A stretch of 63,596 bases of DNA, filler included, from Kipferlia bialata (taxonomy: Eukaryota): the NCBI GenBank assembly GCA_003568945.1. It is 3 parts of 3 records of this genome, joined end to end, with 100 filler letters (N's around TTAATTAATTAA, not from the genome) between each part and the next. Parts side by side here need not be neighbours in the genome. Positions count along the whole stretch, not along the records: positions 1 to 29,607 come from BDIP01000133.1; 2 more parts are not named here. One strand, written 5' to 3'. Positions 12,765 to 61,454 of the stretch are shown piece after piece. Made by a program: the position numbers and the translations under genes. The notes under the pieces were generated by a model. It worked only from the letters and a program-made list of their open reading frames with translations, ran no database searches and was not told the origin of the DNA. How positions within the stretch are numbered: position 1 is the stretch's first letter; each line of letters starts with the position of its first letter.

Positions 12765-15700
12765 ACACCACACTTGGCCCCTAGAGTGCTTGATGTCATC
12801 CTATTAGACTGTGAGAGTAACCCCCCCATGTTCCTCTCTCTCTCTCTCTCTCTTCTAACACTTAGGGTGCTAGATGTCATCCTGCTTGACTGTGAGAGTT
12901 CCACCCCCACCCCCCTCATCCCTTTCTTCTCTGTATATATGTACCTATGTACATATACCATGATGCTCACCCCAGAGTGCTAGATGTCATCCTGCTTGAC
13001 TGTGAGAGTGACAGGGCCAGGGAGACAGGGGGAAGACAGCAGAGCTTAATGAGTCTCGTGGTGAACAGGTATATATATATGTGTGTGTGTGTGTGAGTGA
13101 GTGTCTATATATATATATATATATGTATGTTTGTATATGTATAGAGAGAGTGACAGGGCCAGGGAGACAGGGGGAGGCAGAATAGTCTAATGAGTCTGGT
13201 GGTCAATAGGTATGTATGTATGTATATATACTAGTATATATATGTATATTTATAGAGAGAGGGGGAAGACAGGGAGTCAGAGCAGTCTGATGAGCCTAGT
13301 CGTGAACAGGTAACACCATTGTACTACACAGAGGCATTCATCGTAATGAAATGAGTATGTATTTATTGCATTCCATTATCCAGTCATATTTCTTTGTTAT
13401 AACCCCAGGTCCCGTTTCCTCCGGACTGTGCTCCGCCCCTTCATCAGCCACAGACTGCTGCCACTACTGACACCTGACACATACAGTAACAGGTGTGGAG
13501 TATGTAGGATGTATATATATTATGAGCGTACACTATTATGAGTATACTCACCTTTGCACGCAGTCCAGTCAGGACATGATTCTCTCTCTCTATGTATGAA
13601 TATATACTTTCATCTTCTTCACCTTACCCCTAGGGACAGTATAGTCCACTTAGTCCAATCATGCCTTGTGTCCCATGCTGACACCCCACCCTATCTACTG
13701 GCAGCGGCATCGTCAATGGCAGAGGGGCCTGACTGGAGGTGAGCATGTATATCATGTATATTATATGAGATATATTTGTATGTGTTTGTACATAATATAC
13801 CTACTGGCAGCGGCATCATCAATGGCAGAGGGACCGGATTGGAGGTACATATATATGGGTGTATTAGTATAAGAGTGTATTAGTGTATATACTATATTCT
13901 CTGTCTACTGGCAGCGGCATCGTCAATGGCAGAGGGACCAGACTGGAGGTGTATACATGCATATGTATATGTATATATATATGTATTTCCCTTTGTCACT
14001 GGTGCAGTCTCCAGACCTCTATTACCTCTGTATTGATAGGAGTGTCAATGTATATCATTGTATTTATATACTTATATGTCTATGTATCTCACACCTAGGG
14101 AGAGACTGTCAGTCACTGTGGCTGTCTCCAGACTATGTACTATCTCTCTCTCTCTCTCTATATATATATATTCATATATAGTATATATAGATATCACTGT
14201 CCACATGTACTTACTATCAGAGAGAGACTGTCTGTGACTGTTGCTGTGTCCAGACTCTGTGCTGCCAACACTAGACTGGACGCAAATGGGGCACTGCTAT
14301 GCGCATATGCACTGAGGTATATATATGTATAAGTGGATATGAACAATACATAGTATTTACTGTACTGGATGCAAATGGGGCACTGCTATGCGCTTACGCG
14401 CTAAGGTATATATATATAGAGAGAGAGATATTTGTTTTAATTAATTAGTACATTAGTACATAGAGTATGTGTATTTGTTCAGTATTTACTAGACTGGACG
14501 CAAATGGGGCACTCCTTTGCGCTTACGCATTAAGGTACTCTATGCCTGTGTAGCCATACACTTATTCACCAATATATTGATAAGTGTCCTCTAATCCCCA
14601 AGGTCCCTGAGCCGTGACCGGTCTGACTATATTTGTATACATGTATTTACAAATATAATAGTATACATATACAATAGATGTATATATATATATACACTTA
14701 ACCCCCAGGTCCCTGAGCCGTGACCGCTCTGACTATGTGGCCAACCATGCCAGTATGGCATTTGGCACATTCCAGGTGTGTATGTGTTTGTATTGGTATA
14801 TACATATATATATGTATTCTTATATATACGTTTAGACATATAGATATAGTATATGACTATGTGGCCAACCATGCATCAATGGCATTCGGGACATTCCAGA
14901 TATGTATATATGTAGATGTATACACACCTTCGGATGTATAAGTATTAAATATATTGTAGTATATATGGAAGGTAACTCTGTATCTCTTTATGACTATGTG
15001 GCCAACCATGCATCAATGGCATTTGGGACATTCCAGGTACATACACTAAAGAATGTATATACGTATAGTTACATATTATATAGATTTATAGATAGAGAGA
15101 TAGTATCAACCATGCCAGCATGTTAATTAGCACATCCTGGCACATGTATGTTTGTATTTATTCTTTTATAGACTCACAGTATCGTGCTTACTTATGTATC
15201 TTACCCCCAGGGTGTGGATGGTGACTCCACCCTCATGACCAGAAGGGTCATGCTATATATATATACACATATACTATGTATTATACATAGTATTGTATAT
15301 ACTAATTCATATATATATTACTCACACTTAGGGTGTGGATGGTGACTCCACCCTCATGACCAGAAGGGTCATGCTATACATATATACCATATACATTATA
15401 CTAATTAATGTATAATACTGGTATATTCATCCTTAGTATATTCAATATACTTTATTGTCTCTATATAACTGACACTTAGGGTGTGGATGGTGACTCCACC
15501 CTCATGACCAGAAGGGGCATGCTATATATATATACACATATACTATGTATTATACATACTATTGTATATACTAATTCATTGTATTCCTTACCCTCAGGGC
15601 GTGGATGGTGACTCCACCCTCATGACCAGAAGGGTCATGCGGAACCTGGTGGTGCCCATCCTTACGCGGTACGCCTCTGTCTCTCTCTGTATATATACGT

Positions 15701-15849
15701 GTACGTATATATAGATATACATATATACATATATAGACTTTAGTCCCTTTCTGGTCGTGTGTCTATACGCAATCTCTCTCTCTCTCTCTCTCTCTACCCC
15801 CTTTACTCACCCCAGTGTGCTTGGACGTGCCGAGAGTGGGGATGTTACA

Positions 15850-15889
<40 letters not shown>

Positions 15890-17068
15890 TCCCTCCTCCT
15901 CCCTACCCTCTATCCCCTTTACCCACCCCAGTGTGCTTGGCCGTGCAGAGAGTGGGGATGTGACTGAGAGTGAGCTGAGGATGAGGAGCGTACTCCTGAA
16001 GCAGCTGACAGGGATACCCAGGGAGAGGGTGAATGGGGGATTGGAGGTATGGAGCTCATTGCCATATATGTATGTGTACTGTACATCTTACTCTATTATG
16101 CCACTGCACCTTGTCCTCAGATTACCATACAATGATATTGGATTTGCTACGTCTAACTATGAGGTCCCCCTTCACCTTGTGTCCAAGCTGCTGTCCCTGG
16201 CCATGTCCCCCTATGAGGCAGGGGTGGACACAGACGAGGAGGAGTGGCCACTGAAGGTATATAGAGTATATATATGTGTACATATGTATGTAGTATTCTC
16301 ACCCTCCAGGTCAACATTGGGTGTCTGGCCCTGACCTGTGTGGGGCACCTGTACACACCAGGTAGGAGAGGGTATATATATATATATACATATGTATATA
16401 TATATACATTCTACTATAGTTTCACTATACCATACTCTATATACTCTCTGTGTCTGTATTGTGTATGTGTAGTGTATCACTAACCCCCAGCCAATGCCGC
16501 AGACAATAGACACGATGATTCTATCTCTCTATTTATGATCATACTGCATACCCTCAGTGTCTCACCCCCAGCCAATGCCGCAGAGAATAGGCCCGACGTG
16601 TCTAAGAGAGTTCTTATATAGATGCTCAACACACTTCATAGCACATTGGATAGGTACTATACAATGTATATATACACTATTATATACTATTGTGTATATA
16701 TATACATGATTGAGGCTGGGAGGGACAGGGATGTCATATCATTCGACACAATGCTCAACACGATGCACAGCACTCTGGACAGGTGGGAATATGTAGATGT
16801 CTATTCTCAATACTGAACCCATACGTGTGTATTCATGCATAGTGTATATATTGTATGGTGTATTTACCTGCTGACTACACCTCAGACACCTTCTCTCTCT
16901 CTATCTTCCATAAACACTAGCAGCTAACTACTGTTTACCCCTAGGCTGCAGCGTGTTGCCCCCAGACACCCGGCCCTGAGGAGTGCACTCATTGATGGGT
17001 ATGGAAATTCAGTACATATATATATGAGACTTCTTAAATAGGGGTGGATGTAGTTACTATATATATTG

Positions 17069-17120
<52 letters not shown>

Positions 17121-17224
17121 ATAACTAACCCTAGGTACTCCCGCTGCTGTTCTCTGACTGCCATGGCAGAGGGGATGGACAGGCAGGGGCAGAAGCAGGC
17201 AAGGAGATATATATAGTGTGCATG

Positions 17225-17260
<36 letters not shown>

Positions 17261-20200
17261 TGATGATGATGTGGTATGGCAGAGGGGATGGACAGACAGG
17301 GGCAGAAGCAGGTACAGTTATAGGCATAGTACCAGTTTATGTATTATTGTGTTATACTCACCCTCAGATCTCTGTGTACAAGGCTGTCTGGGCCTCCTCT
17401 GTCATTGGTGTCTATATACACATATATGTACTATATACCATAGATACCATACATAATGAAAGTAAATATATAATTCACTCTCCTTTACCCTAACTCTACA
17501 GATATCCGTCTACAAGGCTGTCTGGGCCTCCTCTGTCATCGGTGTATATATACATGTATAGTCATACATATTAATATATATTAATACTACAATCCCTCTT
17601 CACTTTAGTATGCTGTAAATATATGCATTCTAACCATTAGATCTCTGTCTACAAGGCTGTCTGGGCCTCCTCTGTCATCGGTGTATAGATGAACTATATA
17701 CTATATATACTATATGTACTATATATACTGTATGTATTCTCTACCATACACTAACGCTCCAGATATCAGTGTACAAGGCTGTCTGGGCCTCCTCTGTCAT
17801 TGGTGTATATAGTCATATGTATATACTATATATACTGTATATACTGTATATATACTCTACAATACTCTAACCCCATAGATATCCGTGTACAAGGCCGTTT
17901 GGGCCTCCTCTGTCATCGGGGTGTGTATGAGTCTACTAGACCCAGCAGACAGGGACAGACACGACACAGTGTGAGTGTATATATATATATATATGTATAT
18001 GTGTATAGTACATAGATTATATGTGTATATATAGTAGACTATATATGTGTGTCTGTATGAGTCTACTAGACCCAGCAGACAGGGACAGACACGACACAGT
18101 GTACGTATATGTTATATCTATTCTCACACATACACACACACACTCTCTATATATATATTTGTATAACCACTAACACACAGGTACATATCCGGCCTATCCT
18201 CCGCTCTGTCTGTCCTGCCAAGTCTCTTCCTCTCTCTCTCTCTCATATAACCCTTAGGTATATATCCGGTCTCTCCTCCGCTCTTTCCGTGCTTCCAAGT
18301 GCCGTTGGTCACTTTGTGTCACACTTCGGATCCAGTCAGCAGTACGTATACTCTCTTCTATAAATATATATTTTCTTTTTCATATAAATAGATGATATGT
18401 ACTTGGATTTGGGTAACTTCGTACCACCTTGTGTCTCCTCCCTTCAGTCTCTCTCTGTCTCTCTCCCACTCTACACCCCTACCCACACAGGTGTGTGTCC
18501 ACTGTCTCCTCCTATCAGTCTCCCTCTCTCTCTCTCTCTCCCTACATCTACACCCTTAATCCCAGGTGTGTGTCCACTGTCTCCTCCTATCAGTCTCCCT
18601 CTCTCTCTCTCTCTCTCCCTCTACACCCTTATCCACAGGTGTGTGTCCACTGTCTCCTCCTATCAGTCTCTCTCTCTCTCTCTCTCCCNNNNNNNNNNNN
18701 NNNNNNNNNNNNNNNNNNNNNNNNNNNNCTCTCTCTCTCTCCCCTTCTACCCCCTACCCACACAGGTGTGTGTCCACTGTCTCTTCTCTTCAGGACAGCC
18801 TGGTGGCATATGCACTCAACAGAAACATGGACTTTGGCAGTAGGTACATATGTGTATACATAAACTATATGTATATATACTATAGCCCTAAAGCCAATGA
18901 CTTTCGGGACTTTAGGAAACAGGTATGGAGTGTACATATTTTTGAACATATCTACTCCTATGCTTCTCTCTCTTACACCAGGGAGTGCGTTGCCTCTGTC
19001 CTCCGGTCCCTGTCCCTATAGTCTAATAGTGTACTATACACCTTGACACAACGACTCTCATGACTTTATTTAGACTCTTATGACTATACTTACCCCAGGG
19101 AGTGTGTTGCCTCTGTCCTCCGGTCCCTCTCTCTCTCCCACTCTCGGTACATGTTCAGAGCACATGTTGATAAGGGGACAGAGGGGGCACTAGGTATCCA
19201 AATTTCATAAGCTCTCATATATATTTGGTATAGGTGTGTATGTAAGTATGGTACATGTTCAGAGCACACGTGGACAAGGGGGCAGAGGGTACACTAGGTG
19301 TGAATACAATATATTATCGTATATACATCTAGTATATGACATATAACTTGTATAATAATATATATTGTATATGTTCAGAGCACATGTCGACAAGGGGGCA
19401 GAGGGAGGTCTAGGTACCTATCTGTCTATATATGTATATATATGTGTGTGTGAGAGTCTATACATGATATATATATATAGTACATGTTCAGAGCACACGT
19501 GGACAAGGGGGCAGAGGGTGCTCTAGGTGTGAGTATATACATTAATATACACATGTATATACATACCAAGAGATATATATATTTGGTACATGTTCAGAGC
19601 ACATGTAGATAAGGGTACGGACGGTACACTACATGTATGTATCCAGTTATCTGTGAGATAATCCACCCTTACACCTAGGCCTGGATGATGAGTCTTCTTC
19701 TGACTCTGAGAATCTCTCTCTCTCTCTCTCAATACATTTTAGTATACATACACATATACTCTTACACCTAGGCCTGGATGACGAGTCTTCCTCTGACTCT
19801 GAGCCAGAGGATGAGCTGGAGAGAGAGGCCCTGCTGTTCTGCTGGTCAAGGGTGCTGAAGGCCTATAGGTACTACATATATGTGTGTGTATATATATATA
19901 CTATTATTATTAGTAACAAAATAGAGAGGCACTCCTGTTCTGCTGGTCAAGGGTATTGAAGGCATACAGGTACGGATATACCACATCTACAGAATGTACT
20001 TAATGCCTTTCTCTTTTCATATACTCTGACCCCCAGGGACCTGTCCACTCTGGCCCTTACCCCTGTCTCTCCCTATCTCTCTCTCTCTCTCTCCCTCTCT
20101 CTCTCTTACCCCCAGGGACCTGTCCACTCTCTACGGAGTCCCTACTGATTCACCTAAGGATGTATCTGGATGAATATATGTATTTTATACCTCTTACCCC

Positions 20201-23200
20201 CAGGGACCTGTCCACTCTGTCTGGCCTGTCTGCTGACACTGGTCTACAGGTGGGAAATAGTATTTGTATATGTGTGTGCGTATATATATAGAGTACTCAT
20301 TGGTACATGTAGTATGGCCTGTCTGCTGACACGGGACTGCAGGTGGGGAATTTGCAGTATGGATAGATGTATATATATATAGATAGATACAGTACTCATG
20401 GGTGGATAGAGTACGGACTGTCTGCTGACACGGGGCTGCAGGTGAGGGATAGTGTATGTTGTCGTTATAGAATAGTATTGAAGAAATTTATATGTGTCTG
20501 CTGACAGTGACTGGGCTGCAGGTGAGCATATATTTATACATATTATGAATGTCTCTTATATATCCTTACACCCAGGCCGACCTCCAGACATATGTCCTGT
20601 CCCAGCTGTCCACATATCTTCTCTCTCTCTCTCCCCCTCCCTCTCTCTCTCTCTCTCCCTCTATCTCCCCCTCTGACTCTAGGCCGATCTCCAGACCTAT
20701 GTGCTGTCCCAGCTGTCCACCGGTCTGTGTGACAGACCAGGGGATGTATTGAGTGCATGTGTATACGGGGGACCTAGCGATAGGTACATGTGATCAGTAT
20801 ACTCTGTGATCCCTCTGATCATGAGCCACTTCCTCACCCTCCTTCCCTCTCCCACTCTGTGTTGTGTATGTATCTTCCTTCTTACCCCCTAGGTCATACC
20901 CCCCTCTCACTATGCGCCACTTCCTCACCCTCCTCCGTGACCTTGTGTCCTCTACACAGCAGAGCCATAGGCCCTATGAGTCTGACATCCACTCTGTCAT
21001 ACACCACATCGTGGCAGAGACAGTCAGGGGGTTGACTGAGGTAGTGTANNNNNNNNNNNNNNNNNNNNNNNNNNNNNNNNNNNNNNNNNNNNNNNNNAGT
21101 GTATGTAGTGTATATCTACAACTGTGTATATAGTATTAGTATGTATATCCACTCTGGCATACACCATATAGTGGCAGAGACAGTCAGAGGGTTGACTGAG
21201 GTGTGTTAATGTATGTGTTAATACATACTCTTCTTCCACCAACCTCAATGCCTCTACCCAGCACATCTTACACTACTTCCCTGCAAGGATCTTTGTATTA
21301 CTATACATGTATATATCCTCCACTCATTACCCCCGGTCTTTGCCCAGCCTATCCTATCTCCCTACATGAATATGAGTGCACTATTGAATTAATTGTGTGT
21401 ATGTATGTCTTTCTATTATGTATTGGTACTCCTACTGACCCCCAGGCCTTCACCCAGCCCATCCTGCCACCCACGGCACCTGAGGCATTGGCAGGTACAG
21501 ATGTGTATAGATAGACCCTATACTGTATGTACAATGTATCCAGTAGTTGTGTAGATACTATATATATTTGTAGTATAGTTATTGACATATGCCCCCCACT
21601 GCACCTGAGGCACTGGCAGGTACATTATTACATGGATACTATATGCTATCTATCTACGTAAAGAGTGGTATATAATTGTCTATTCCCGAGCACTAGCAAA
21701 TATAGTGATGATGTCCATTGTGTATATATATATATATATATATATACTTATCCAACCCCCAGGCTGTGTTGATCTCCTCTCCTACTGCGTGTGTCATGGT
21801 CTGTCCTTTATCATTGCTGTTGATGCCAAGTATATACATATGAGTGTACTACCATCCTAACCCATAGGTTGCGTCGATCTCTTATCCTACTGTGTGGTCC
21901 ACGGCCTATCCTTTGTGATAGCTGTTGATGCCAAGTCAGCAGAGGGGGAGAGAGAGAGCAAGAGGGGCAAGAGGGGTAAGGGTAGAAGGGGTGCACAGGC
22001 TGAGAGAGAGACTGCCATCGTGCCACTGGTCTGTGACCTCATGTTACAGGTACATACAAACATACACATATATTGTACTTGTAGATATATGTACTATGCT
22101 GTGTATACTCTACTTGATATATACTGCCATTGTGCCACTGGTCTGTGACCTCATGTTACAGGTATAGATGTATATATATACATATGTATATACTATATTA
22201 ACTGTATTTACTATACTGTATATACTATTCTATACTGCCATTGTGCCACTGGTCTGTGACCTCATGCTGCAGGTATGGGCATATATATATTTACATGTTG
22301 TGTGTATACATACTATACTGTATACCCTATTAGTAGATACTGCCATTTTGCCACTTGTCTGTGATCTGATGTTACAGGTGGGTCTATACTATATATGTGT
22401 ATAGAGACTGTATTACATGTTCTCCTTCAGGCGTGCATATACACATTTGTATTGAATATAGAGTATATACTAACACCTCAGGTCAATAGTTATGCCACCT
22501 CCAAGACCGATGCCACATACTATCAACATATTGTCTGTATAAGGCATATATATCTATGTACTATATATATATACGCTAATGTCAGGTCAACTCCTATGCC
22601 ACCTCCAAGACCGATGCCACATACTATACTCTCTCTTCGTGTTAAGTGTTTCATTGTATACATGTATGTACTGATCTCTAGGTCAACTCCTATACCACCT
22701 CCAGGACCGATGCGACATATCATTATACATGTATGTATACTTACAAGTATACATGTATATACTGATCTCTAGGTCAACTCCTATGCCACCTCCAAGACCG
22801 ATGCCACTGAACTCATTACCTATATGTCATGTATCTATCTGTATCTGGATATATACTATTATACAAGTTTATACTAATCTCTAGGTCAACTCCTATGCCA
22901 CCTCCAAGACCGATGCCACTGAACTGCCAGTGGGGGACTTGATATGCTGTGGGCAGGTGAGGGATACTATATATATACATGTATATATACATATGCTGTG
23001 GGCAGGTATGTAGCCTACCTATAGATGGGGACCTCATATGCTGTGGTATATGTAATGGTATATTCATATAGTTAGTGTATATAATTGTATATAGATGCCA
23101 CTGAACTGCCAGTGGGGGACCTCATATGCTGTGGGCAGGTACGTGTATGATGCTTGTATAGGAGTGTTATATGGGTGTATTGGTATATTCATATAGTTAG

Positions 23201-24883
23201 TATATATATATATGTCACTGAACTGCCAGTCGGGGACTTGATATGCTGTGGACAGGTGTGTAGCATACCTATAGATGCTTGCAAGTGTATCTGATGTAGT
23301 AATCCATATAAATAGTATATATGTTTAGTGTGTATAATGTATTCACATTTGACGGAACTGCTAGTGGGGGACTTGATATGCTGTGGACAGGTACGTGTAT
23401 GGTGCTTGTATAGGAGTGGTATAGATATGTATATATATATATATATATATATAGTTAGTGTATATATATATATATATATATATATGCCTCTGATCTGCTA
23501 GTGGGGGACCTGATATGCAGTGGGCAGGTGAGTATCTGATAGTTGTACAGGAGTGGTGTACACATGTATATATTACCTCTTGTACTGTGGGCAGGTACTG
23601 ACTACTAATACGTGTATATTCACACGACCATAAGCATATCTTCACAGACTAAACTATCTATGGGAGATCTCGTATGCTGTGGGCAGGAAAGGGGTAGATG
23701 TATATATATAGATAATTACATATAGATTTCGATACCTTCACACCTCATAACAGGTCCATAACATTGCCACCCATGTCTCCTGTTTTATCATGTAACTCCC
23801 TTTCTCTCTGTTTATGTATATGTACACAAATTCCCTCACTTCTAGGCCCTCGACATCGCTGCCCATGTCTCCTGTCTCACCATGCTCCCAGTACTCTCAA
23901 CCGCCAACACTCCCAATGGAGAGAGGAGGGTAGTGTGTGAGGCCAACCCCAAGCATGCCTCGCCCCTACAGTCCCCATGCTCATCTCTCCTGTCCTCCTT
24001 ACTGTCACCCTCCAGCCTACCGTACACACCACTATTCCTCAGGTAGATACCATATTCACTTTGTATATACTATTTTGACATGCTCATCACTATGCCAACC
24101 AGCCTACCATACACACCACTATTCCTAAGGTGTGTATGCTATGCTCTGCTTTGTATTTATGTGTGTTCATGAATCCTATTCTCTCTGCTGTCACCATCTA
24201 GTCTGTCCTCTCTCTCTCTCTCTGAGTGAGAATTACGGTGTTGTATTTGCGTGATATTCAATTTCTACACGATAGCGTCTCACCCTCAGGGGTGTAGGTG
24301 GTGGCTGCATCCAGCGTCTGTGTGTCAATCTGAATGTCAGACCCCATGCCACTGTCCAACTTGTACTAGACGCTGTACTAGGGTCTTTGAACTCAGGTAG
24401 ATATACACATATACATATAGATATATTGACTATCCATGTTCTAACCCCAGGCAATGCGTGGCATGCCGAGACCCCACCCGCTGAGGTGCATGACGTGTAT
24501 GCAGCACTTGGGGAGGGAGGTATGGGAGATATGTATATATATATGTATATGCATAATATGTATCTCACCCCCAGGTGCCCAGGGTGCCCTGTGCATGGCA
24601 TCCCTATTGGACGTGATCAGGTATGGGTTGGGTATATATATATATGATTATAGTCTTATAGTCGTTGGTAGATGCAAGGATGCATATGTCTATACGTATA
24701 TAGTACATATATATCCCTGTGCATGGCATCCCTATTGGACATGATCAGGTATGGATATGATGTGTGTACATATGTGTTATTACATACAGATATACATATC
24801 CAGTTATCTCTCCCTCACCCCCAGGCTGTGGGTCGAGGCCCCCACCGATGCCGATGTCACAGTCGATGCATTCTTCACTGGTA

Positions 24884-24930
<47 letters not shown>

Positions 24931-25085
24931 AGTATGAATATGTATGGTTGCATTTTGTACATGTATACTTCACCGATGCAGACGTCACGGTGGATGCATT
25001 CTTCACAGGTGTGTTGTAATATATAATATATAATATATTGCACCCTATTCATATACGTATATTTCTATCTATTGGCTATTTTCTC

Positions 25086-25118
<33 letters not shown>

Positions 25119-28100
25119 CTTATAATTATACTAATACCCCAGGTGGCTCCACCCAGGGTGGCATTGAGACCCAGGGGGGTGTCTACCTCTCTCTCTCTCT
25201 CTCTCTATGTATATATATAACTATATATATATGTTTAGTCTTATATCTAGGTGGATCCACCCAGGGTGGCATTGAGACCCATGGACTATACTATATACAG
25301 ACGTATATATGCATCTATACTTATACTCACATATTAGGTGGATCCACCCAGGGTGGCATTGAGACCCAGGGGGGTGTCTTCCCATACATGAGGGGGACCA
25401 CGGAGCTGGAGCCATTCTCGGACAGGCATGTGATATATATGTATGTATATATATGTAGATATATATATATAGAGAGAGAGAGAGAGCGAGAGAGTAAACA
25501 TGAGGGGGACAACAGAGCTGGAGCCATTCTCAGACAGGTAAGTGATGGCATTAATGCAGTACATACAGTATGTATACATATATGAAATTATACATATACA
25601 TATAGTATTATATATGAGGGGGACCACGGAGTTGGAGCCATTCTCAGACAGGTATGACACATAAATTGCATTGTAGATTGTGTAGACCTACCTTTCCTCT
25701 ATACACTAACCTCTAGGAGCACCCTCATTGACCGTATCCTCCCTCTGTTGGTCAGTGTCCTGGGGGGAGTGGTCAATGAGACAGCACTCAACCCGGTCAA
25801 GAGGTATGGAATCATGCCGTATCCGTAGGAGTGTTCCTCTTATCATTTGTCATCTTCACCTCCAGATGCCTTCTTTCTGTCTCTCCCTATTAATTTATCT
25901 AATCCTTAGGAGTGCCTCCCTCCTCATCCTTTGTGCTGACAGGCGCATACTTTCTCTCTCTTTACGTATATTTCTATATAATTGTGTCTATATGTATATC
26001 TTCCTCTTATCCTTAGGAGTGCCTCCCTCCTCATCCTCTGTGCTGACAGACACCTAGTGCATCAGACCAAGGAGGGGTCATACACACAGACAGGTACAGA
26101 GAGAGTATATACTATATGGATATATACCGTATGTAGTATTGCACATGATAGTAGAGAATAGTGGTATACAATACACCTACCCTCCAGGCATGCACGTGCT
26201 GTCCCCCCAGCTCGAGTCCCTTCTGTTCCCCCCTCCCCCACCCCATCCTGCACTGAAGCAGGGGGAGACTGTGAGTATGACAAAGTCATTGAAGGTATAC
26301 ATATCCATGAAGATATATATATATAATTACATTTATACATACCCTTGCATGAAGCAGGGGGAGACTAGTCAGTATGACGAAGTCATTTAAGGTAATGTAG
26401 TACTGTGTGATATATACATATATATATATATATATGTACATGTATACGCTCTCTCTCTCTCTCCTCTCTCTCTCTCTCCTCTCTCTCTCCCTCTCCCTTA
26501 TCCTATCTCTAACCCTCTAGGTCATGTCCTGGATAGTATGTGTGTGTTTAAGTGTCATAGTACACATATATATACATACCCCTTACTCCAGGTCATGTCC
26601 TGGATAGTCCTTGTCATCTCTGTCCCTCTCTCTCTGTCTCTCTCTGTATATATATATACTAACCCTCTAGGTCATGTCGTGGATAGTCCTTGTCTCCTGC
26701 AGACCTGGCAGAGACGGACAGGGACTGGGGGATGGGAGGGGTATCAGCATTGATAGGTACCCCTGCTGCTGTACCCATGGCACTGTTCCTAAGAGGGGTG
26801 TGGCCACCACTGAGGCATGTATATATAGTATATACTATATATAGTATATATATATATACCCTGCTGCTGTGCCCATGTCCTTGTTCCTAAGAGGTGTATG
26901 GCCACCATTAAGGTATATACATACAGTATATGTATACTATATATATGTGTGTGTTCTATGAACATACATATATATATGCCACTGTTCCTGAGAGGGGTAT
27001 GGCCACCACTGAGGTATGCAGAGGGGATAAATCATATAGTGTATATATACAAAGTATTGTGTGTATGTATTCAAACGTTTATACCCCTCCTGACCCCCAG
27101 GGACCGGTGTCTCCCCTTCCTGATGTATGTAAACTCAAACTTATATACAATATGTATAGTATGAATATGTATCCTGCTACTCAATGTATATGCCATCTGA
27201 CCCCCAGGGACCGGTGTCTCCCATTCCTGATAGACCTCCATCCACAGACAGAGGCCAGGTATGTAGTATATATATATAGTGGTGTAGTACATATATATAT
27301 ATATATATATTCTATAGAGATACTACGCATATACTCTACTTGTGTATATAGCTTAGTATATATACTGGTAGACCTCCATCCACAGACAGAGGCCAGGTAC
27401 AGTAGTATATGTACTATATATACTATATTGTGTGGTTATATATACTATATACCTATATATACCCTGCCTGATAGACCTCCATCCACAGACAGAGGCCAGG
27501 TATGCCATGTTCATAGATGTATATACAGTCATTCGATACTAACTGCTTAAGCGCATAGATGAGGATCTACTCTCTCTCCCTCTCTCTCTATTTGTATACG
27601 TGTTATAATACTCACCCCAGGCTCATCTGGGTTGTTGCCCTACACATCCTCTCTCTCTCTCTCTCATACATATATATGTACACATATACTAGTGTTTATA
27701 TGACCACTCACCCCAGGCTCATCTGGGTTGCTGCCCTCAACACCATCCTTCTCTCTCCCTCTCGTTCTCTCTTCTGATACATATTTACTGTGTAAATGTA
27801 GCATTACTATACTTATCGTCAGGCTCATCTGGGTTGCTGCCCTCAACACCATCCAGTACATGGCATGCTGGCCTGAGTGCAGGTAAGGGTATATAGTAGT
27901 ATATATACTATATGTGTATACTACATGTATATATTTATAACAACATGGATGTATCTCTGTATCTACACCATCCAGTACATGGCATGCTGGCCAGAGTGCA
28001 GGTACCATATATGTGTTGTATATATACTGTATACTACATGAATGTATATATTATTATATGGATGGATGTCTGTATCTATACCATCCAGTACATGGCATGC

Positions 28101-28769
28101 TGGCCAGAGTGCAGGTATCATTGGATTCGTGGAGTATATATATGTATAGTGGATAGGGTATGTGTATCTTTGTATCTTTACCATCTAGTACATGGAACTC
28201 TCTCCCTCTCTGACCCTCTCCCTTCTTACTCTAGGTCCATGCTCCTCCCCCTCCTCCCCTCCTTCTCTCTCTCTCTCTCATTCTCTCTCTCCTTGTGTAT
28301 ACATGTGTATATTCTTACTCCCCCTTCTTACTCTCAGATCCATGCTCCTCCCTCTCATTCCCTCCTTCTCTCTCTCTCTCTCTCCTCCTTTCCTTCTCTC
28401 TCTCTCTCTCCCTCTCCTTTCTCACTCTAGGTCTATGCTCCTCCCCCTCCCCCCCTCCTTCTCCGGTCTCTGTGCCCATGTGTCCAGGGTGTGCAATGGG
28501 TCAAGGGAAGGGGCACTAGCTCAGCAGGTATGTATATGTAAACATATATATATGTGTATATATATACATGTGTATGTGTATATATTTATAGAGAGAGAGT
28601 AGGGTGTGCAATGGGTCAAGGGAAGAGGCACTAGCTCAGCAGGTATGCATATATATATACTGAGAGAGAGGGAGAGAGAGGGAGAGAGAGAAAGAATGGC
28701 AGTGTCATGCAGATATGTAGATTTGTGTATACTTATCCCAGGTCCTGTCCGGTCTCTAGGGCACCTTAC

Positions 28770-28806
<37 letters not shown>

Positions 28807-28936
28807 ATTCATATACATTTGTGTTACTGATGTCTAACCCCAGGTCCTGTCCAGTCTCCAGGGCACCTCCCCCTCCCACTCCCCTGTCTCTAAGCATCTG
28901 GAGGCACTGGTGGCTGACGACTTCGCTTTGGTGTAG
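8331..28936 (+). CDS. Large roughly 50-exon alpha-solenoid (HEAT/ARM-like) protein; weak resemblance to HEATR6
   Basis: Short GC-rich exons join in frame, e.g. 11690-11773, 14221-14316, 14709-14775, 17879-17970, 18258-18341, 19099-19193 and the last exon ending TAG at 28934-28936. The protein is Leu-rich and helical. RLDANGALLCAYALRSLSRDRSDYVANHASMAFGTF is HEAT-like. One exon (16572-16653) is problematic; see findings. Confidence 0.75.
8521..28768 (+). repeat. Arrays of intronic partial exon copies ('exon-edge echoes') in most introns of the large gene
   Basis: Examples: four acceptor+ISVYKAVWASSVIGV copies (17368, 17502, 17641, 17763) before exon 17879; three copies of the end of exon 11690-11773 plus GT, ending 11814, 11936 and 12052; four upstream and about eight downstream pieces around exon 22885. 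Confidence 0.9.
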
Positions 28937-29295
28937 GGAGAATTATCTTTGTTGCAGAGAGACTTTGCTTTGTTGTAGGGAGACGACTTCGCTTTGGTGT
29001 AGGGAGACTCCGCTTTGTTGTAGAGAGATGTTACTCTTGTGTAGAGTGGTGTAGAGAGACTTCTCTTTAGTGTAGAGAGATGTATCTATCTCATGTAGAA
29101 TAGAATAGAAGAAATTGTACAGTTACTACTCTTGGTATTTGACCACAAACACAGACCCCGAGGCACTGGTGGGAGACGACTTTGCTTTGGTTAAGAGAGA
29201 TTCTGCTCTTATGTGGGGAGACTTGGAGAGACTTCCCCTCTGGTGTCAAGAGAGGTAGAGAGATATCGCTTTAGTCTAGAGAGAAGTAGAGAGAC
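28918..29295 (+). repeat. Degenerate roughly 21-bp tandem repeat derived from the stop-codon region (GACTTYGCTTTGKTGTAGRGA)
   Basis: Successive variants after the stop: ctttgctttgttgtagggagac, cttcgctttggtgtagggagac, ctccgctttgttgtagagaga, cttctctttagtgtagagaga. Confidence 0.7.
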
Positions 29296-29607: not shown

Positions 29608-29707
29608 NNNNNNNNNNNNNNNNNNNNNNNNNNNNNNNNNNNNNNNNNNNNTTAATTAATTAANNNNNNNNNNNNNNNNNNNNNNNNNNNNNNNNNNNNN
29701 NNNNNNN
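29608..29707. other. Artificial scaffold join: 100-nt N gap containing the six-frame-stop linker TTAATTAATTAA
   Basis: TTAATTAATTAA at 29652-29663 is embedded in Ns. An identical construct is at 59306-59405. Confidence 0.95.
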
Positions 29708-30124
29708 GATGGATGAAAGTATGAAGCGTTTCGACCGTTTGATCTCGCGAGCCCTATATATTCTACCATGGATAATTATATCCATGGTATATATCCAGGT
29801 CCTGGACCAGGATGTATCATATATCACATCATGTAATTCTGAATTACAGTAATTCATATGTGATCAAGAGTGTCATGGAGTCCATGACTCATGGACTACA
29901 CATACTGTAGCAGAGTTTCATGGTTGAAGATCAACAAACTCTCTATTAATCATCTTTGCTCCCGCACGTAGACCTACTCGTCGCAGTGGGATTCTCTCTC
30001 CGAAGGAGTCTCCAAACTTTGGACCAAAGTCAATATTTGCGACGGTAATCAAACGTCTGACAGTTATCATTGTCGTGACACACTACCATTTTTATCCAAC
30101 ATCAAATGGTCCAGAGTATATCAA

Positions 30125-33100
30125 TCACTTCTTCTTCCCATGTCCCTTGAAGTTGAACTTGAGCTTGCCCTTCTTTGACCCCTTGCCCTTCTTCACAGTC
30201 TTCTTCACAGTCTTTGGCTTCACAGCAGTCTCTGCCTCTTGGGTGTCGATGCCGGGTATCTTCTCCACCCACGTCTCCCTGTCGACCTCTGCCAGCCTAG
30301 CCACCTCTCTGTCATTGTACAGAGTCCACATGAGCACGGCCTGCTGCTGACTCGTCTCCATATCAGGCCATAGACGCACCATCATCCTGTGGTTAGGGAC
30401 AGCTCTGCACCATTGTAACACATTCAGTAGACGTGGAATCAATTGCCGTATACACTCACTTTCCCAGCATCCGTCCCGAGTGTGTGGCCGGTATGTACTC
30501 CGACCCCACCATATCCTGGCTGATGTCGGCCAGGTTGCCTGAGTCCTTAGCCCCCACCTGTGCCCCCATAGCAAATGCCTCCATCCTCTTCTGTGCTATG
30601 AACAGGGTGCTCAGCCTGGCAGGCCGGGACATCAGCACGATGGGCTGGATCCACTGTCTGAGCTCTGGCACGATACTGGCATTCACCTTCTTCTTGGGGA
30701 GGAGGGTGCCCACCCTGAACCCCTTCATTAGATGGGGCACACAGGATGCCGCATCCTGCTGCAGACGGAAGAGGGAGTGGCCTATGTTGGTGGCCTCAAA
30801 CACACGGGTGGTCCTGTTGGCACTGCTGCCCCCAAGGGCATGCACCATAGCACGCACACACCTGCTCACCTTCTCCATCTCAGCTCTCTTTGGGGGTATG
30901 GGGGGACAGAAGGCCACGGCACGCACTGCAGCCATTCCACCCAGCACCGAGAACGTCTTATCCTCTGCCACGATCAGTCCCTCACTGCAACCCCCATAGG
31001 CTATGGTGAATATGGAGGGACCGGAGTACGTGCGTCTCGAGACTGAGCCGTTGAGGCCCCCCAGCTCATCCTCTGCCTCCAGGAAGTGCCTCAGCTTGGA
31101 TGCCACAGGTAGGGTCTTGAGTGCCCACTCTGTCTGTGCCCTCCTAACCCTGATTTCTAAGGCAGACATGCTCCTATCTACCCTGTCCAGTATGCCAGGC
31201 ACGTGGTACAGGAGGTGGGCCTGGAGGTCACCAGTCAATGCCTTCATCAGCAGGATGTTGGTGCCCTCTCTCGACTTCTGAACACTCTCAGGGGTCTGTA
31301 TTCTGTCGGGGTCCACCATGTCATGGGCCCCATGGAGAGTGCCGCTGTCAGTCTCCCTCACACCTAGAGCGTTGGGGACAGACAGGGCCTGTGGGGCTAT
31401 GGGGGTGGGGGCTAGTTCCACTGTGAACCAGTTGTGTCTGGTATCCACCCTAGTCACTGTCTGCACTGCCTGCAGCATAGACATCTCCAGCACATGCCCA
31501 TGGGCGGTGGTGAGGGAGAGAGAGCGGGATGGGGCTGGGTCAACCAGAGTGACGCTCCTCACATTGACCTCAGGGTGCAGCACCACTGTCTGTTTGTGAC
31601 CCGATGCCCAGGACACCTCCTTGACCACTCTCGCTGAAGACACACACCTACTAGGCAGGTCGTACGTGGGTATGGTGAGGGGTGAGATGGATATGGACTG
31701 TGGGTCTACTGGGTGCATCTCGTAGACACTGGCAGCCGCAGAGTTGAGGTTGTCAGGGACATCAAACTCTGTACTGGCCTTCAACTTCTTCAGCGCAAGG
31801 TCCATCTCTGGAGACACCTGCACATCCATCACCCTCATGTGGAACACACCCACGGAGCAGGGATGGGGGGCACTGCTGCTAGGGAGTATGACACGGAAGG
31901 ACTTGGGAGCATCAGATGAGAGGCCGAGGTACACCAAGATGTCCTCACCCATACCTGCCCCCTGCTTCTCAACAATACTTCTCTGGATAGCGGGTGTGTC
32001 TTCCATCACAGGACACCTCCCGCCCTCGTCCGCACTCTGTCGTGACTGGAGTAGACACGTAGGGGCATCCGTGTAGAAGGGCAGGTCACGGCATGTCACA
32101 ATGACTGGGGTGACATCTGTCGGCAGAGGGGTCGCCAGCCCATTGGCCCTGAAGGTCAGCAGCAGCTCGTCAATGTGACAGAGGTCTACAGCAGTGGCCC
32201 CAGTCTCGTACATGTTTGTTAGGACAGGGAGGCCTAGGGGAAGAGGGACATCGCTGGAGGAGTCGTAGCCAGGGTCGGGGGAGATGCGACCGTCACTCAG
32301 GGCGAAGAGCAGTAAGCGAACCAGATATCCACACTGGAAGACAGACACCCGTCTGTCTGCCACATTGACCCCTGACACAGGCACAGCCCTTCTGATGAGA
32401 CCCGCAAAGACAGCGGCCATCTCACCAGTGCACAGGGAGGGGGCCACTGGGAGGGCCCCACTGCCAGTGACAACCCTCTGGAAGGAGAGCTCTGTGACAC
32501 ACCTGCTCGGGGGCATGACAGTACATCCCATGGGGGAGTTGATGGCGTAGTTCTCTATGGGCCTGGGGGCTCCCTTGGTGCCAGGGGGTATGAGTGTCAG
32601 GGGCACACATCCTAGCACAGCGGGCATCATGTGGATGGGCACCCCAGTGAACCTCTCCAGCACCCCCTCAGTCTGCTGCAGAAGGGCAAAGGATCGCAGA
32701 GAGACCACACCCGGCTCAATCCCCTTGGCGATGTTGCCGTGTCTGAGTAGGGGCACGGTCTGCATGAGGTAGGGGAGGAGACCCACGTAGTCTGGGATGT
32801 TGGAGGCATGGATGTATGCAAAGGTCCGGTGCTCAAGACGCATATGGTCACACACATGGGCCATATCCCCTACACTGATCTCAAGGTGCTGCAGGTATCG
32901 TGTAGCTGGAATCTGACCCCTTCCGCAAAGGGCATCACCCCACACACCGACAGAGTGCAGAATGAATGCAGACACTGGGTTGGGAGAGGCCAGAATATCC
33001 TCTCTCTTTGGGTCTCCGATGGATATGGGGACAAGACCCTCCACTGGTATGGACTGGAAGTCTCTGCCGGTGAGGGGGTAGGCACCCTTTGGGTAGGCAG

Positions 33101-36100
33101 GAGGGCAGAGCGTCTCCACCTTGACCTGTTTCCCCCCTCTGCCACGCTTGGTACGTGCTATGGTACAGTGCTCAGTGTAGACATCCAGATCAGCTGGGGT
33201 CAGCACAGGGCAAGGAATACATGAACTCATTGAAGACCTCTCCACACCATACCTGCAATCTTTGATATCTCTGGGGAGTCTGTCCCATCAAGACAGTTGA
33301 CCATCATGGTAAGACATGTTGTCTTGAGGTGTCGGGCGGTAACTACCTATATGTCAGACATCCAATGACTGGCGGTACACAGGCATCACACGACGGGGAA
33401 TGTATGCTGATATTTGGAGCCTATAATTGTATGACTCCACACCATAGACCTACCTCCGCTACTCCTCCTAGGCGACCTACAGTGGCCTCTGTCCCCTTCT
33501 TGATGTCCGCAAGGGACTCTTCTGGTGTGTCCACAGGCAGACCCTGCCAGAATACCATCTCGGCCAGCACTGCCTCCCTATCTGAGTCCCGGTGGAAGGA
33601 GAGAAGGCCAGACCTGGGGTGGGTGAGAGAACGTAGGAGGGGGGGAGGTAGAATGAGGGATGGAGACAGAAAATATATTATATAGTAATATATGAATATG
33701 GAGAGAGATCCCACCTCCCGTCATTGAACAGGTCCAGCTCCTTCACACTCTGTGGACTAGCCAGCGCCTGCACTAGGGTATCTACCGCCCCCATCATAAT
33801 GCCTCTGGCCTCGGGTGTTGTCTGCAGCCCGTACCAGGCATCCACCACAGCCTGTAGGTGTGCATCCCTCCCTCCCTCCCCCTCAGGTGGTGTCCTACCT
33901 AGCATGTAGAGCAGCAGGGTGTCCCTGGCCATGGCCGAGGGGGATATGTCGTTCAAGGTGATGTGCAGGGGCGGGCAGTCGGGGATGCCCAGTGAGATAG
34001 AGAGCTATGGGTAAGACTAGCAGGAGGATTATAGGATCTATGTATACATATATCCTATCCACAATTAAAATTAACCCTCATCCACTCACCAGTGTCTGGA
34101 GCAGGTTCCTGGGATCCCCGGCCCCGAGGGACAGGATGGATATGGGGTTGGACCCGACCTTGCCTGTCCTCTCGAAGTGGGGTATGCCGTTCAGGAAGGA
34201 CACTGCCACGCTGTTGCCAAATGGGTAGTGGTAGGCGTGCTCGTGACACTGGCTGTTACCGGCCAGGCAGTTCTCAAGGGAGAGGGAGTTGTACCAGGAG
34301 TGGCCCTCCTCCTCTCGAGGGTACTCACATACAGGGGGGTCCCAGGGCTCCACCTCAGCCTCAGCCTCTAAGGGGCTAGTGGGGACATCAATGGTGGACA
34401 CAGCACCTGCACCCTCAGGGGGGACAACATCAGGCTCAGGGACTGCCTTCTTAGGAGGGGTCGTCTCTACAACCGGTGCTCTCCTCTGTTGTGGCCTGGG
34501 TGTACGGGGACCTCCAAACGACACTGGAGTCGCAGTCGGTAGTTGTGCGTGGAACCCTCCCACCAGAACTAAGTCCATATCTGCCAGTTCCTTCAGGTCA
34601 TTGTCGTTGTACAGTGACCACACCATGGCACCTGGGTGTCTGGTACCCATATCGGGCCACAGGGTGGGGTAGAAGAGTCCCAGAGCCCTCCCAGGGTGGG
34701 TGTCTAGGACGTCATTGCCCTTCAGTTCCTGGAGTGAGACTAATAATTATACTTACAAACCATATTCGTAAGGAGCTAAATACGATATTATGTGGCGTAG
34801 TAAATATAGAGATTGAGTATATGGAGAGAGCACCTTGTACAGTGCATAACGCAGCACTCCATGAGGTCCCATCCTGAGGAAGCTGGACATGATGTTGTCG
34901 CAGGGGCGGCACGGGCGTGCCATGAGCACTATGGGCCTCATCCACCTCTGCCTGGTTTCTGCTGGTATCTCAGCCTCGTCAAAGGCCTCAACAGGCAGCA
35001 TGTGCTCCCAGTCGAGGCCCTCCATGATGTGAGGCACAGATGTCGAGGCATCGTGCTGTAGCCTCATCAGACTCTGGGCCGTGCCAGGCAGAGACATCTC
35101 AACCATCTGGGGGTGGCGACCGTTGTGTAGCATGCGCATAGTGGCCATCATGACTGTGCTGCCGAAGGCCTGTTTCTGGTCTTCTTCCGTTGGGAGAGGG
35201 GGGCACCAAGCAACACCACGGAAGGCCACAGTCTGCCCAACCACCACTATGGGACGCCGCTCGAAGCACATCACCCCCTCTACACTAGTGCCACACATCA
35301 GAATGGGCATGTTGCAACCACGCTGTGCGGCTGCAAACATCATCCTACTCAGGGTCTTGTTAGCCTCAAGGGACTGCCGCAGGTTGGACTCCTCTGGTAC
35401 CTTGCTCATTGCCCACTGTATAGTGTCAGTCCCCACAGGCCCTCTCTTGGTCTTGTCACCCCGGAGGGCCATAGTCCTATCCACTAACTGAGGCACCTCG
35501 GCAAAGAGTGTGCGCTGCCACTGGGCTGTGACAGTCTGACCCAGGAACTGCCCCCCTCTATGGGACATTGAACCCTCAGGCAGGTTTGGCTCCTCCTCTA
35601 TACCAGGGACAGAGAGGGCGGTGGGCTTGGTGTCTGCTAGGGTGTACTCCCCTGGCAGGTGGTCTCTGCTGTCGAGGGTGTTGGGTATGCAGAGTGCTTG
35701 TGGGGGGACACAGGTGGGGGCCAGAGTGGCTTGGAGAACGCCGCACTCGGGTGGCCAGACCTGAACCACAGAGGAGACAGGCTGGAGGAGCTGGAGGGAT
35801 ATGTCTTTACCTGTCAATCAGAGAGTAGTTTTCCACAAGAAGAACACATTAATATACCCATTGACCGTACCTGACTCTGTACGTAGAGCTATGCACCGAC
35901 AGGGTCCGTCTCCAGCCAGAGTGGCAGTCTCGATACTCGTACTCTTAGGGACAGTGATACGTAGACCATGGCCCCTCTCCCATGAGATGTTAGCAACTGA
36001 ATCAGGCAGGAGGGACTCTGGCACATTGAGCTCCAGAGGCTGAATGGGACTGACAGAGACAGAGGCCGATGGTACTGGGTATGCATGGGAGATGGACAGG

Positions 36101-49328: not shown

Positions 49329-49602
49329 CCAACATCCACACCCTATCCCAGAATCCCTACTTCAGTATCACCACTTGCCTCCTTTGTGATTGTCTTGAAT
49401 ACGCAACATGTTTCCCCTCACCCTATCAGTTGACTTATATGTATCCTACCTGTCTCATAAATACACTATTCCGAATATGTATCTCACCCTAAGCCATTTA
49501 ACCCTTTTCTCATTGTCAGTCAGTATCAGCCATTTCGTTCCACCATCGACACTTCTATCACCATATACCCTTGTATTCATCTCACCCTAGACGCGTACCC
49601 AT

Positions 49603-57123: not shown

Positions 57124-57606
57124 AGAGCCAGCAACACTTGAACAGTTTTGTTAGAGTTATACTATTGAATAGATGTATATACGTGTATATACTTGGTGGA
57201 CACCAGCTTGTAGAGAGCCAACCTAATCCAGACTGCAGTACTGTCGTTCAACTTGTCTACACTTTCTGGAAGTGTCACTTTCTTGACGTTTGCGAGAGGT
57301 TGAATCTGTTTGAGATAGTAAAACTCTATACATATCTGATCTACTACACATGCCGCTCTGCAACAGAGAGTCTCTGCTTGATGTTTACAAACTCAATAGT
57401 GTTCGGTGGATATTCAATCGATTATCGTTACCAACGATATTTATGAAGCAAGGAAGGGGCAAGATAAGACACACACTACGACGCTCTGAAATGTCACATT
57501 GTATACATAAGAAATTGCGGATACAGATAGATAACGAGTTCTATTTGAAGCCTTCTGCACTCTAGAATGTGATGACTCATCACTGATGAGTGAAACTATC
57601 CAAGCC

Positions 57607-59522: not shown

Positions 59523-61151
59523 GCCCAGATTGTGATGGGAGGCCAGAACATGGGATATGCCTCGTCAGCCAGTGCATGGGACACAGCAGCACCTGAGGTA
59601 CAGTATATACATATATAGAAAGAGAGAGAGACATGGTATATATAGATATATATATATTGGTTATGCCTCGTCAGCCAGTGCATGGGACACAGTAGCTCCA
59701 GAGGTATACACAGTGTACATATTGTATTCATGTTTCTCACTTTACTATCATGTACTCCTAGACGGTACACCTCCTAACCCCCCAGATGGACCCAGCTGCT
59801 GCAGCCGATGCTGCCTTGGCAGAAGCAGACATGGAGAGACAGGTGAGGGGGCACATAGTATAGATAGTGTGTATATTGTGTACTATTGCATATGATTGAT
59901 GCATTACATGTAGATGTCCCTTTCTCATGTATACTATATATATGTTCCCCTGACCCCAGGCCCCGGAGCCCGAGGATCCATAACGTATATGGATAGTACT
60001 ATACTATGTATATGTGTATATATATGTGTATATACCTACCCTGACCCCAGGCCCAGGAGCCCGAGGAGGCCGATGGCCCAGTCCAGCTCAACCAGGCCAC
60101 ACTCGACCAGTTGAGTATCCCTCTCTCTCTCTCTCTGCCTCTGTATCTCCCCCCTCTACCCCCTGTATCTCTGGCTCCATCTCACCCCAGGTACCTTGCC
60201 TCCCTGGCTGAGGTCGAGGAGTTCCTGACCACAGACCCCCACAACGAGGATGTCATCAGGTGAGTGGAGATTTGTGACTGTGTATGGAGATGTATTTATG
60301 TATGTATATGTATATGCACTCATACTCAGTCTTCGCATCCAGCTCAAGTCTGACATTGAGTCCATCCGGAGTGCCCTGGCCCAGAAGGCTAGGGACGACC
60401 AGAAGGCGCAGGTATATACACATTCATTCATATACTCTCCCTATTATCTCTGATATATATACTATCACTTACTTAGTGTAGTTGTAAATACATTGACCCC
60501 AGACTGATGCCGACCGTGCCAAGAGAGAGGCCGAGGAGGCAGAGAGGGAGAGGCAGAGGAAGTACAAGAAGGTATTGTAGTTGTATATGTATACGTATAT
60601 ATATAGATATATAGATATATATACATTGAGAGACAGAGGGGGAGAGGAAGTACAAGAAGGTGGGTTCATATATACTCCCTATATACTATATGTGTTTACC
60701 TGATCCCCAGTGAGACTGTGTTGCTCCCCCATAAGTCTCTCTCTATATATATAAATATACCGCATCTAACCTCTAGGGTGACATTGTGACTGCCCTGCTC
60801 CCCCAGGAGGGTGTGAGACTGACAGCCGAGGTCAGGGCACAGACAGACGAGGGGGTTGATGTCACATTCCTGGGTGAGTGTGTATATACACGTACAAGTA
60901 TTTAGGTATATATACATTGTATCGTATTTATACAATGTCCTCACCCCCCAGGCTTCGAGGCCACTGGTCTCCTCCCCCTGGCCAACATATCCACATACAC
61001 ACGGCCACAGCTCAACGAGGTACCCGCTTCTCTCTCGGCCCTCCCTGTGTTCCTTTATCCATCTCTTTCTGTCTATCAGTTAACAAGCAAGGCAATATGT
61101 AACTTACTGACCAACCTGACTAAGTCTCTCTCTCTCTCTCTCTTTTAGTTT

Positions 61152-61195
<44 letters not shown>

Positions 61196-61418
61196 TGCAT
61201 TAACCCCCAGGGCGACGTGTGCCTTGCTGCCGACTCTTTCTCTGTTTCAACCATATCAATGTATATGTCTCTTCTTTTTGTGTGTGTATGTATATACTAA
61301 CCCCCAGGGCGACGTGTGCCTTGCTGCCCACCCCGAGCTAGGGGGCAAGTACCGCAAGGCCACGGTGCAGACAGCTGACATCACATCCCTCACAGGTCAG
61401 AACATATAACATGAATAT

Positions 61419-61454
<36 letters not shown>

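Follow-up and report, generated by a model that had tools for sequence, protein, structure and literature searches.

How can DNA that is not translated carry a strong protein-level signature? This genuine puzzle is posed by a plus-strand gene that spans ~8014 to 28936 of a 63,596-nucleotide stretch of DNA (filler included; hereafter the window) from Kipferlia bialata (assembly GCA_003568945.1; positions 1 to 29,607 come from BDIP01000133.1), a free-living fornicate for which the part of the genome paper considered here gives 124,912 introns (PMC5874029). The introns of this host gene hold many partial copies of the ends of their own flanking exons. A preliminary description had noted that such copies differ from the exon almost only at synonymous sites, and had proposed that they either remain under protein-level selection or were copied recently from functional, strongly diverged versions of the gene. 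The copies have the appearance of exon ends that once functioned in other versions of the gene.

Exon Ends Are Copied into Their Own Flanking Introns

The window is a gapped assembly of at least three joined pieces, in which we placed 49 exons of the host gene by hand, using branch-point and splice motifs; two sets of 22 joined exons read through without a stop. With a collapsed exon near 16572-16782 and a frame-problem exon at 26671 treated as separate blocks, 51 exon blocks were compared with their own flanking introns by a codon-blind local alignment (score of at least 30), which yielded 112 intronic copies of exon ends. As a control, exons were paired with other introns, and 36 of 2450 pairs scored 30 or more; possibly one or two of the 112 copies are due to chance, and none was removed. 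The splice site is retained in 105 of the 112 (anchored copies). Acceptor copies precede their own exon and comprise the acceptor and the first 35 nucleotides (median) of the exon; donor copies follow it and comprise its last 43 nucleotides (median) and the donor. Copied length does not increase with exon length. The unit of ~110 nucleotides consists of the exon end, the splice signal and a spacer of ~68 nucleotides (median repeat 106-112 nucleotides), and in 20 of the 20 introns holding both kinds, all donor copies lie before all acceptor copies. Together, the copies make up 27% of the 16,293 intron bases of the gene and offer a source for much of its intron length. Only one inverted match was found at a score of at least 36, to exon 8997, which contains a GA repeat.

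The splice dinucleotides are present in 45 of 47 acceptor copies (AG) and 48 of 56 donor copies (GT), and a branch motif with AG is found in 42 of 47 acceptor copies, compared with 45 of 49 real acceptors and 77 of 699 other intronic AGs. At positions -12 to -3, the identity between an acceptor copy and the acceptor of its exon is just 54%, and some copies join an identical exon part to an unrelated but well-formed acceptor. At the far end, each splice signal lies at or below background; 3 of 46 acceptor copies and 2 of 54 donor copies have both. Within an array, copies share their far-end breakpoints (to within 3 nucleotides in 23 of 29 acceptor pairs) and their spacers, suggesting that a single duplication founded the array and that exchange then took place in the exon sequence held in common. 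Gaps occur in 11 of 105 copies, and stop codons number three.

The public protein P0123 agrees with our model from 19099 onward, except at two exon ends where we modelled GC donors. Such donors were modelled at 17198, 25425 and 26814, two of which are replaced by different donors in the public protein; the copies of the three carry GT in 5 cases out of 5. Similar copies also surround the stop codon of the last exon of the host gene (28961-29191).

Silent Differences Exceed the Expectation for Dead Copies

Pooled over the 112 copies, differences from the exon affect 296 of 1007 silent sites and 155 of 3049 replacement sites, that is, a silent divergence (dS) of 0.37, a replacement divergence (dN) of 0.053 and a dN/dS ratio of 0.14. 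By codon position the differences number 90, 60 and 301, and shifted reading frames give ratios of 2.2 and 1.8. Bootstrapping over 42 exons places the ratio at 0.10-0.19, with 37 of the 42 exons below 0.45. In fixed, ungapped windows at the splice site it is 0.08 for 18 nucleotides and 0.26 for 36 nucleotides, the rise being due to short copies running into spacer. Compared with one another, the copies give a ratio of 0.136 over 79 pairs, with a dS of 0.36, and 46 of 63 private changes are silent.

For the 20 copies within 14099..18341 the ratio is 0.09, and recounting bore out the examples quoted in the preliminary description, none of which changes an amino acid: 7 differences in 14 codons at 18181-18223; 5 differences over 13 complete codons at 14099-14138, where the first base also differs and completes a split arginine codon in both versions; 5, 6, 7 and 7 differences in 15 codons in the four ISVYKAVWASSVIGV copies; 4 silent differences in the 8521 copy; 4 in 15 aligned codons of the 9724 copy, with a fifth in the next codon; and 4 silent differences each in the copies ending at 11814, 11936 and 12052. 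The wording "almost only" suits these examples and is too strong for the whole set, where three stops occur and 33 of the 93 copies at least six codons long have a changed amino acid. The amino-acid changes are weakly more conservative than random (P 0.07).

For comparison, we simulated dead copies and sent them through the same detector in 192 runs. When the exon was frozen, dN/dS was 0.84-0.89; when it changed silently, the ratio was 0.43-0.47, and the lowest single run gave 0.25. The expectation that dead duplicates should lie near 1 is thus mistaken beside a working exon, where the simulation gives ~0.45. Even so, the comparison with a neutral simulation that the preliminary description had called for, made over all copies including degraded ones, leaves the observed ratio far below ~0.45 and not near 1. 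Both dead-copy nulls are rejected for the main gene, and the pooled and copy-versus-copy ratios indicate that the copies' own ancestry was under protein-level selection. It is therefore very improbable that we are looking at ordinary dead duplicates whose silent excess comes from selection on the working exon and from detection bias. That explanation predicts a silent share of 0.40, compared with 0.66 observed (190 of 267 unique codon states are silent), and a copy-versus-copy ratio higher still than its ~0.45; in the main gene it is refuted unless exons mutate several-fold faster than copies 100 nucleotides off, although it is not rejected for two smaller genes of the window.

Silent divergence is constant by rank (dS 0.386 for the nearest copy, 0.393 for the second and 0.382 for further ones). 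Over 89 copies, silent differences are near-binomial (P 0.05) and replacement differences are clumped (P 6e-6), and the two are uncorrelated (correlation 0.10), arguing against simple ageing, which would tie both. In ten silent switches, two of them serine TCN/AGY switches, the codons are two or three base changes apart; a serine AGT to TCA switch is seen in two of the three donor-side copies of exon 14709. Among 87 variable silent codons, 11 show three or more states, up to four at one site, and four gametes are found in 7 of 18 informative site pairs, a pattern that recurrent mutation could also give. The multi-state codons and four gametes point to many mosaic sources rather than two parents. 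A two-parent hybrid origin is ruled out by the three- and four-state sites together with the near-binomial spread.

The Outermost Splice Sites Are Used in the Major RNA Form

We compared positions 7900-17680 with contigs from two sequencing runs of one sample, of which X2 is the presumed RNA run and behaves as spliced RNA. In X2, one contig of 6422 nucleotides has listed pieces that match the real exons with 0 differences, a spacing equal to the modelled exon lengths from 8334 to 16254, and GT-AG joints, and there is no RNA depth in bins holding copies alone. The results show that the outermost splice pair is used and the copies are skipped in the major RNA form, which is the form that a contig reports, since contigs drop rare variants.

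These data bear on the idea that the copies are sometimes translated, an RNA- or DNA-level switch swapping the exon end in a minority of molecules under weak direct selection. Such use would explain a low dN/dS without hyperdiversity (a clonal toy population with slight selection on copies gives a ratio near 0), the splice dinucleotides are kept, and a shift toward AT at silent sites is consistent with copies that have long stayed in place under weak selection. However, the RNA contig consists of the real exons alone, a half-exon swap would need the far-end signals that so few copies have, and stops and gaps are present among the copies. Swapping half an exon by splicing is ruled out, the far-end signals being at or below background, and we know of no mechanism that exchanges exon ends in a minority of molecules. 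We consider translation of the copies unlikely.

The DNA contigs of the other run, X1, cover copies and exons in one piece, with no differences and at a depth of 411-455 (one record, for example, runs over 10427-11968). Because X1 may be the source of the window itself, its contigs show read continuity, not independent occurrence. This possible origin, the gapped assembly and at least one collapsed array leave some room for an assembly artefact in which haplotypes of a mixed culture were joined at microsatellites. Yet separately built contigs cross the copies and exons at even depth, the copies end mid-exon in unique spacer, and the polarity of donor and acceptor copies is perfect in 20 of 20 introns, making an artefact extremely improbable. 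A rearranged copy-to-exon DNA joint, as ciliate-type alternative DNA processing of partial duplicates would produce, was not found among the 15 of 34 joints covered, in contigs only.

In the array at 16461-16782, the RNA passes from 16607 to 16711 with a single intervening letter, and the DNA contigs step back by 149 and 160 bases; this array is composed of young, near-identical units, more than were assembled. In intron 16047-16163, a GAG acceptor is borne out by the RNA contig, and a degraded exon-start copy with a standard CAG lies, unused, just upstream of it (16163).

Refreshment from Diverged Alleles May Explain the Signature

With the dead-copy nulls rejected, one of the two options of the preliminary description, protein-level selection or recent copying from diverged functional versions, holds. 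We favor the second, because the copies are absent from the RNA contig and lack far-end splice signals, and because silent divergence neither varies with rank nor correlates with amino-acid change. The explanation that we prefer, and consider fairly probable, is that dead junction copies are refreshed by recombination from the strongly diverged working alleles of other individuals or from sister lineages. A first duplication across one junction would be harmless, since the outermost sites are used. Alleles would then pair only in exons, which alone are alike enough, so that an exon end may mis-pair with a copy, and unequal crossover or conversion would add, remove or overwrite copies with another individual's working exon sequence. 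Under this model, silent differences would represent allelic diversity, predicted at ~0.27-0.30 per silent site, and amino-acid differences the time since the last refresh.

The toy population in which we modelled this process had a single working end and two copies. With higher diversity and conversion, four outcrossing settings gave ratios of 0.06-0.10, copy-versus-copy ratios of 0.11-0.19 and an allelic silent diversity of 0.25-0.33. At theta 0.2-0.25, outcrossing gave a dS of 0.38-0.41, a dN of 0.028-0.038, a ratio of 0.07-0.10 and a copy-versus-copy ratio of 0.13-0.19, the observed values for this comparison being 0.387, 0.035, 0.09 and 0.136. The fit shows sufficiency after tuning two rates, not proof, and because a clonal model with slight selection on the copies also gives a low ratio, the numbers alone cannot separate refreshment from use.

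Two further explanations dispense with outcrossing. Under clonal second-order selection, deletion or conversion would frequently put a copy in place of the exon end, and copies with harmful changes would be purged indirectly. The breakpoints and spacers shared within arrays suggest that copies do recombine mutually, and one array has been freshly amplified; but all four clonal conversion settings gave ratios of 0.47-0.50, and none fell below 0.47, even with lethal changes, as fast exchange wipes out silent divergence and slow exchange fails to purge. Moreover, strong selection against each change is doubtful in an orphan protein such as this one, and we regard clonal purging as improbable. Equally improbable are donors residing within this same genome, either as paralogs of the gene or as a second, diverged haplotype. 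These would provide functional diverged templates without outcrossing, but a single protein record was found for the test exon (1 of 20 candidates), no relative was found among 1.84 billion representatives, up to four codon states per site need several donors, and one RNA version was seen.

Several observations weigh against refreshment from diverged alleles. At four-fold sites the copies show a shift toward AT (74 versus 42) that a plain allele pool does not predict, and donor copies are more diverged beside the splice site (dS 0.71 versus 0.21), which an allele pool does not predict either. dN increases with rank (0.020, 0.033, 0.040), but not significantly (P 0.10). In the second and third genes, 15 copies give a dN/dS of 0.29-0.36, for which the dead-copy null is not rejected, and a dS of ~0.17, with 14 of 91 silent sites differing, compared with 296 of 1007 in the main gene (P 0.003). 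Five of nine outcrossing settings gave ratios of 0.20-0.41, which is too high, and the fit needs tuned rates. No diverged allele was found: the X1 DNA contigs listed one variant site only (a haplotype less than 95% alike would escape), a scan of metagenome contigs with P0123 gave 45 pattern matches, none confirmed, a degenerate pattern scan of metagenome contigs gave 0 matches, and the host protein had no relative among the 1.84 billion representatives. The required silent diversity exceeds the 0.20 given for Schizophyllum commune in the part of that report considered (PMC4576712), and sex has not been observed in Metamonada, according to the sections consulted of PMC8516963. By way of context on the side of refreshment, the same sections state that metamonads lack nonhomologous end joining and keep meiotic proteins, and that fornicates have lost Rad51A and possess two Dmc1 paralogues (PMC8516963).

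Comparison with Known Systems

Silent conversion cassettes, such as those of Borrelia vlsE and the chicken immunoglobulin pseudo-V genes, create amino-acid variety, and sequence flows from cassette to gene. The Kipferlia copies resemble them as partial, unexpressed copies beside an expressed locus, and would likewise keep their coding features through recombination; unlike them, they are intronic, their amino acids are conserved, and the flow would be mainly from working allele to copy. No store of amino-acid variants is seen, as 60 of the 93 copies are without change. Mutually exclusive tandem exons are whole exons that have both splice sites and are present in mRNA. Here too there are tandem exon-like copies in introns with a dN/dS well below 1 (0.14), but each copy has one splice site and is absent from the RNA contig (major form). 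Intron gain by tandem genomic duplication also lengthens noncoding sequence through local duplication involving splice signals; in contrast, no new intron arises here between two copies of an exonic AGGT segment, existing junctions with their splice signals being copied into existing introns. Nor is there introner-type repetition across unrelated introns within the window, since copies match their own flanking exon.

Two further parallels are described, in the parts of the reports considered, in human and in a fungus. Intron 7 of human F7 holds a 37-bp variable number tandem repeat with silent 5′ pseudo-sites (PMC1557585). As in Kipferlia, the unit spans the exon-intron border, and the authentic outermost site is used while later copies are silent. 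The F7 repeat, however, is found at one locus, on the donor side only and with sequence-identical splice sites, whereas the Kipferlia copies occur on both sides, in most introns, with diverged spacers and a protein-level signature; near-identical minisatellite units are not seen, dS being 0.36 between copies and spacers weakly alike. In the hypervariable Schizophyllum commune, crossing-over concentrates in exons between alleles 14% apart (PMC4209137), so that recombination between very different alleles is restricted to conserved exons, as we propose here, and silent diversity is 0.13-0.20. The Schizophyllum abstracts report no junction-copy arrays, and diversity in Kipferlia is deduced from one genome, not measured.

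The arrays thus differ from F7-type tandem repeats, mutually exclusive exons and silent cassettes in at least one defining feature each, and they behave like an array of junction-spanning repeats that gene conversion refreshes. In the open-access literature we found no description of such Kipferlia arrays or of an allele signature in junction copies, and the examined parts of the genome paper do not discuss junction copies (PMC5874029).

The Host Gene and Other Features of the Window

The positions of the features are given in Table 1. Exon 20894-21040 is 100% identical to the K. bialata hypothetical protein KIPB_001028, its sole match among 20 candidates, and the P0123 gene model (18896-28933) takes in only the 3′ third of the host gene. 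Pfam gave no family for 10 translated stretches of the host gene or for P0123, and phmmer against the 1.84 billion representatives matched the host protein only to itself. An Atlas feature search gave HEAT/ARM-type leads, and MEI1/PRD1 meiotic proteins scored 0.92-0.93, yet with only 115-134 shared features, and no name was assigned; as a lead only, the host protein is predicted to be a HEAT/ARM-like solenoid. No support was found for a THADA-like identity.

Some parts of the gene model are affected by the assembly. The ends of exon 26671-26814 are kept in different frames by its own copies, which implies a one-base assembly error or a 16-nucleotide intron. A poly-C run at 8213-8330 probably conceals missing DNA: after 8212, one RNA contig runs on with letters absent from the window, and ~1.8 kb of the main RNA contig of the host gene, upstream of 8334, is unplaced in the window. 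The exons at 8014-8212 may belong to another gene.

Elsewhere, three intron-poor paralogous genes lie in tandem on the minus strand at 30456-37927, the first matching two K. bialata DUF4470 proteins, and no junction copies were seen in this region. A BspA/DUF285-type repeat gene occupies 49591-52168; its listed best matches are mostly bacterial or unnamed surface proteins, and it is possibly laterally transferred. The joined translation of the third gene (59523-62879) is one that we take to resemble an SPF30-type Tudor-domain splicing factor; a Pfam search with three of its single exons found nothing. Short exon-like copies ~100 nucleotides apart are also seen at 54372-54500 and 57097-57220, one of them around a stop codon. 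The gaps at 29609-29708 and 59306-59405, with a TTAATTAATTAA spacer between N runs, are a record linker, not biology.

Table 1. Exons, junction copies and genes located in the window
Feature	Position	Strand	Basis or remark
Host gene, modelled part	8331..28936	+	49 exons and two pieces of one collapsed exon, 50 introns
Acceptor copy: AG and 5′ part of exon 14221	14097..14141	+	codon-blind alignment
Working exon	14221..14316	+	RNA piece 14219-14314, 0 differences, abuts exon ending 13738
Donor copy 1: 3′ part of exon 14221 and GT	14359..14407	+	alignment
Donor copy 2 of exon 14221	14488..14536	+	alignment
Acceptor copy of exon 14709	14601..14630	+	alignment
Working exon	14709..14775	+	its codons, not those of the copies, in RNA contig
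Three donor-side copies of exon 14709	14854..15135	+	14854-14899, 14991-15038, degraded 15107-15135
Three acceptor copies of exon 15598	15209..15522	+	15209-15253, 15330-15374, 15478-15522
Working exon	15598..15668	+	spacing and joint in RNA contig
Acceptor copy of exon 15932	15814..15848	+	alignment
Working exon, joins GAG acceptor at 16163	15932..16046	+	RNA pieces 15931-16043 and 16161-16254 adjoin
Collapsed array	16461..16782	+	working exon not intact; more copies than assembled
Donor copy of exon 17135-17198	17276..17312	+	GT in copy, GC in modelled exon
Four acceptor copies of exon 17879 (ISVYKAVWASSVIGV)	17366..17811	+	each with branch-like motif and AG
Working exon	17879..17970	+	RNA loose end continues with its letters; frame
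Donor copy of exon 17879	18051..18102	+	alignment
Acceptor copy of exon 18258 (YISGLSSALSVLPS)	18179..18223	+	alignment
Working exon	18258..18341	+	frame only, outside RNA comparison
Densest arrays, around exon 22885-22956	22050..23845	+	3 donor and 4 acceptor copies, then 7 donor and 1 acceptor
Second gene with junction copies	41287..44130	+	6 found
Third gene with junction copies	59523..62879	+	9 found

Implications

The arrays form a natural test set for splice-site choice, as many as seven donors or four acceptors that look intact being bypassed. The spliceosome that bypasses them has a reduced protein set, 87 of 174 proteins according to the part of the report considered (PMC6679479). If the copies were instead used, the mechanism would be new.

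If the alleles of other individuals are indeed the source of the copies, a single assembly would provide evidence of outcrossing in a free-living metamonad, and silent diversity is predicted to lie above the 0.20 of Schizophyllum commune, as given in the part of the report cited (PMC4576712). More tentatively, and with somewhat less confidence than in the refreshment of this one gene, introns may archive alleles genome-wide, through exon-restricted recombination between lineages at ~30% silent distance, so that a single genome would bear witness to cryptic sex and to a silent diversity greater than in any eukaryote known; a bolder version of this proposal would be an undescribed DNA- or RNA-level switch of exon ends.

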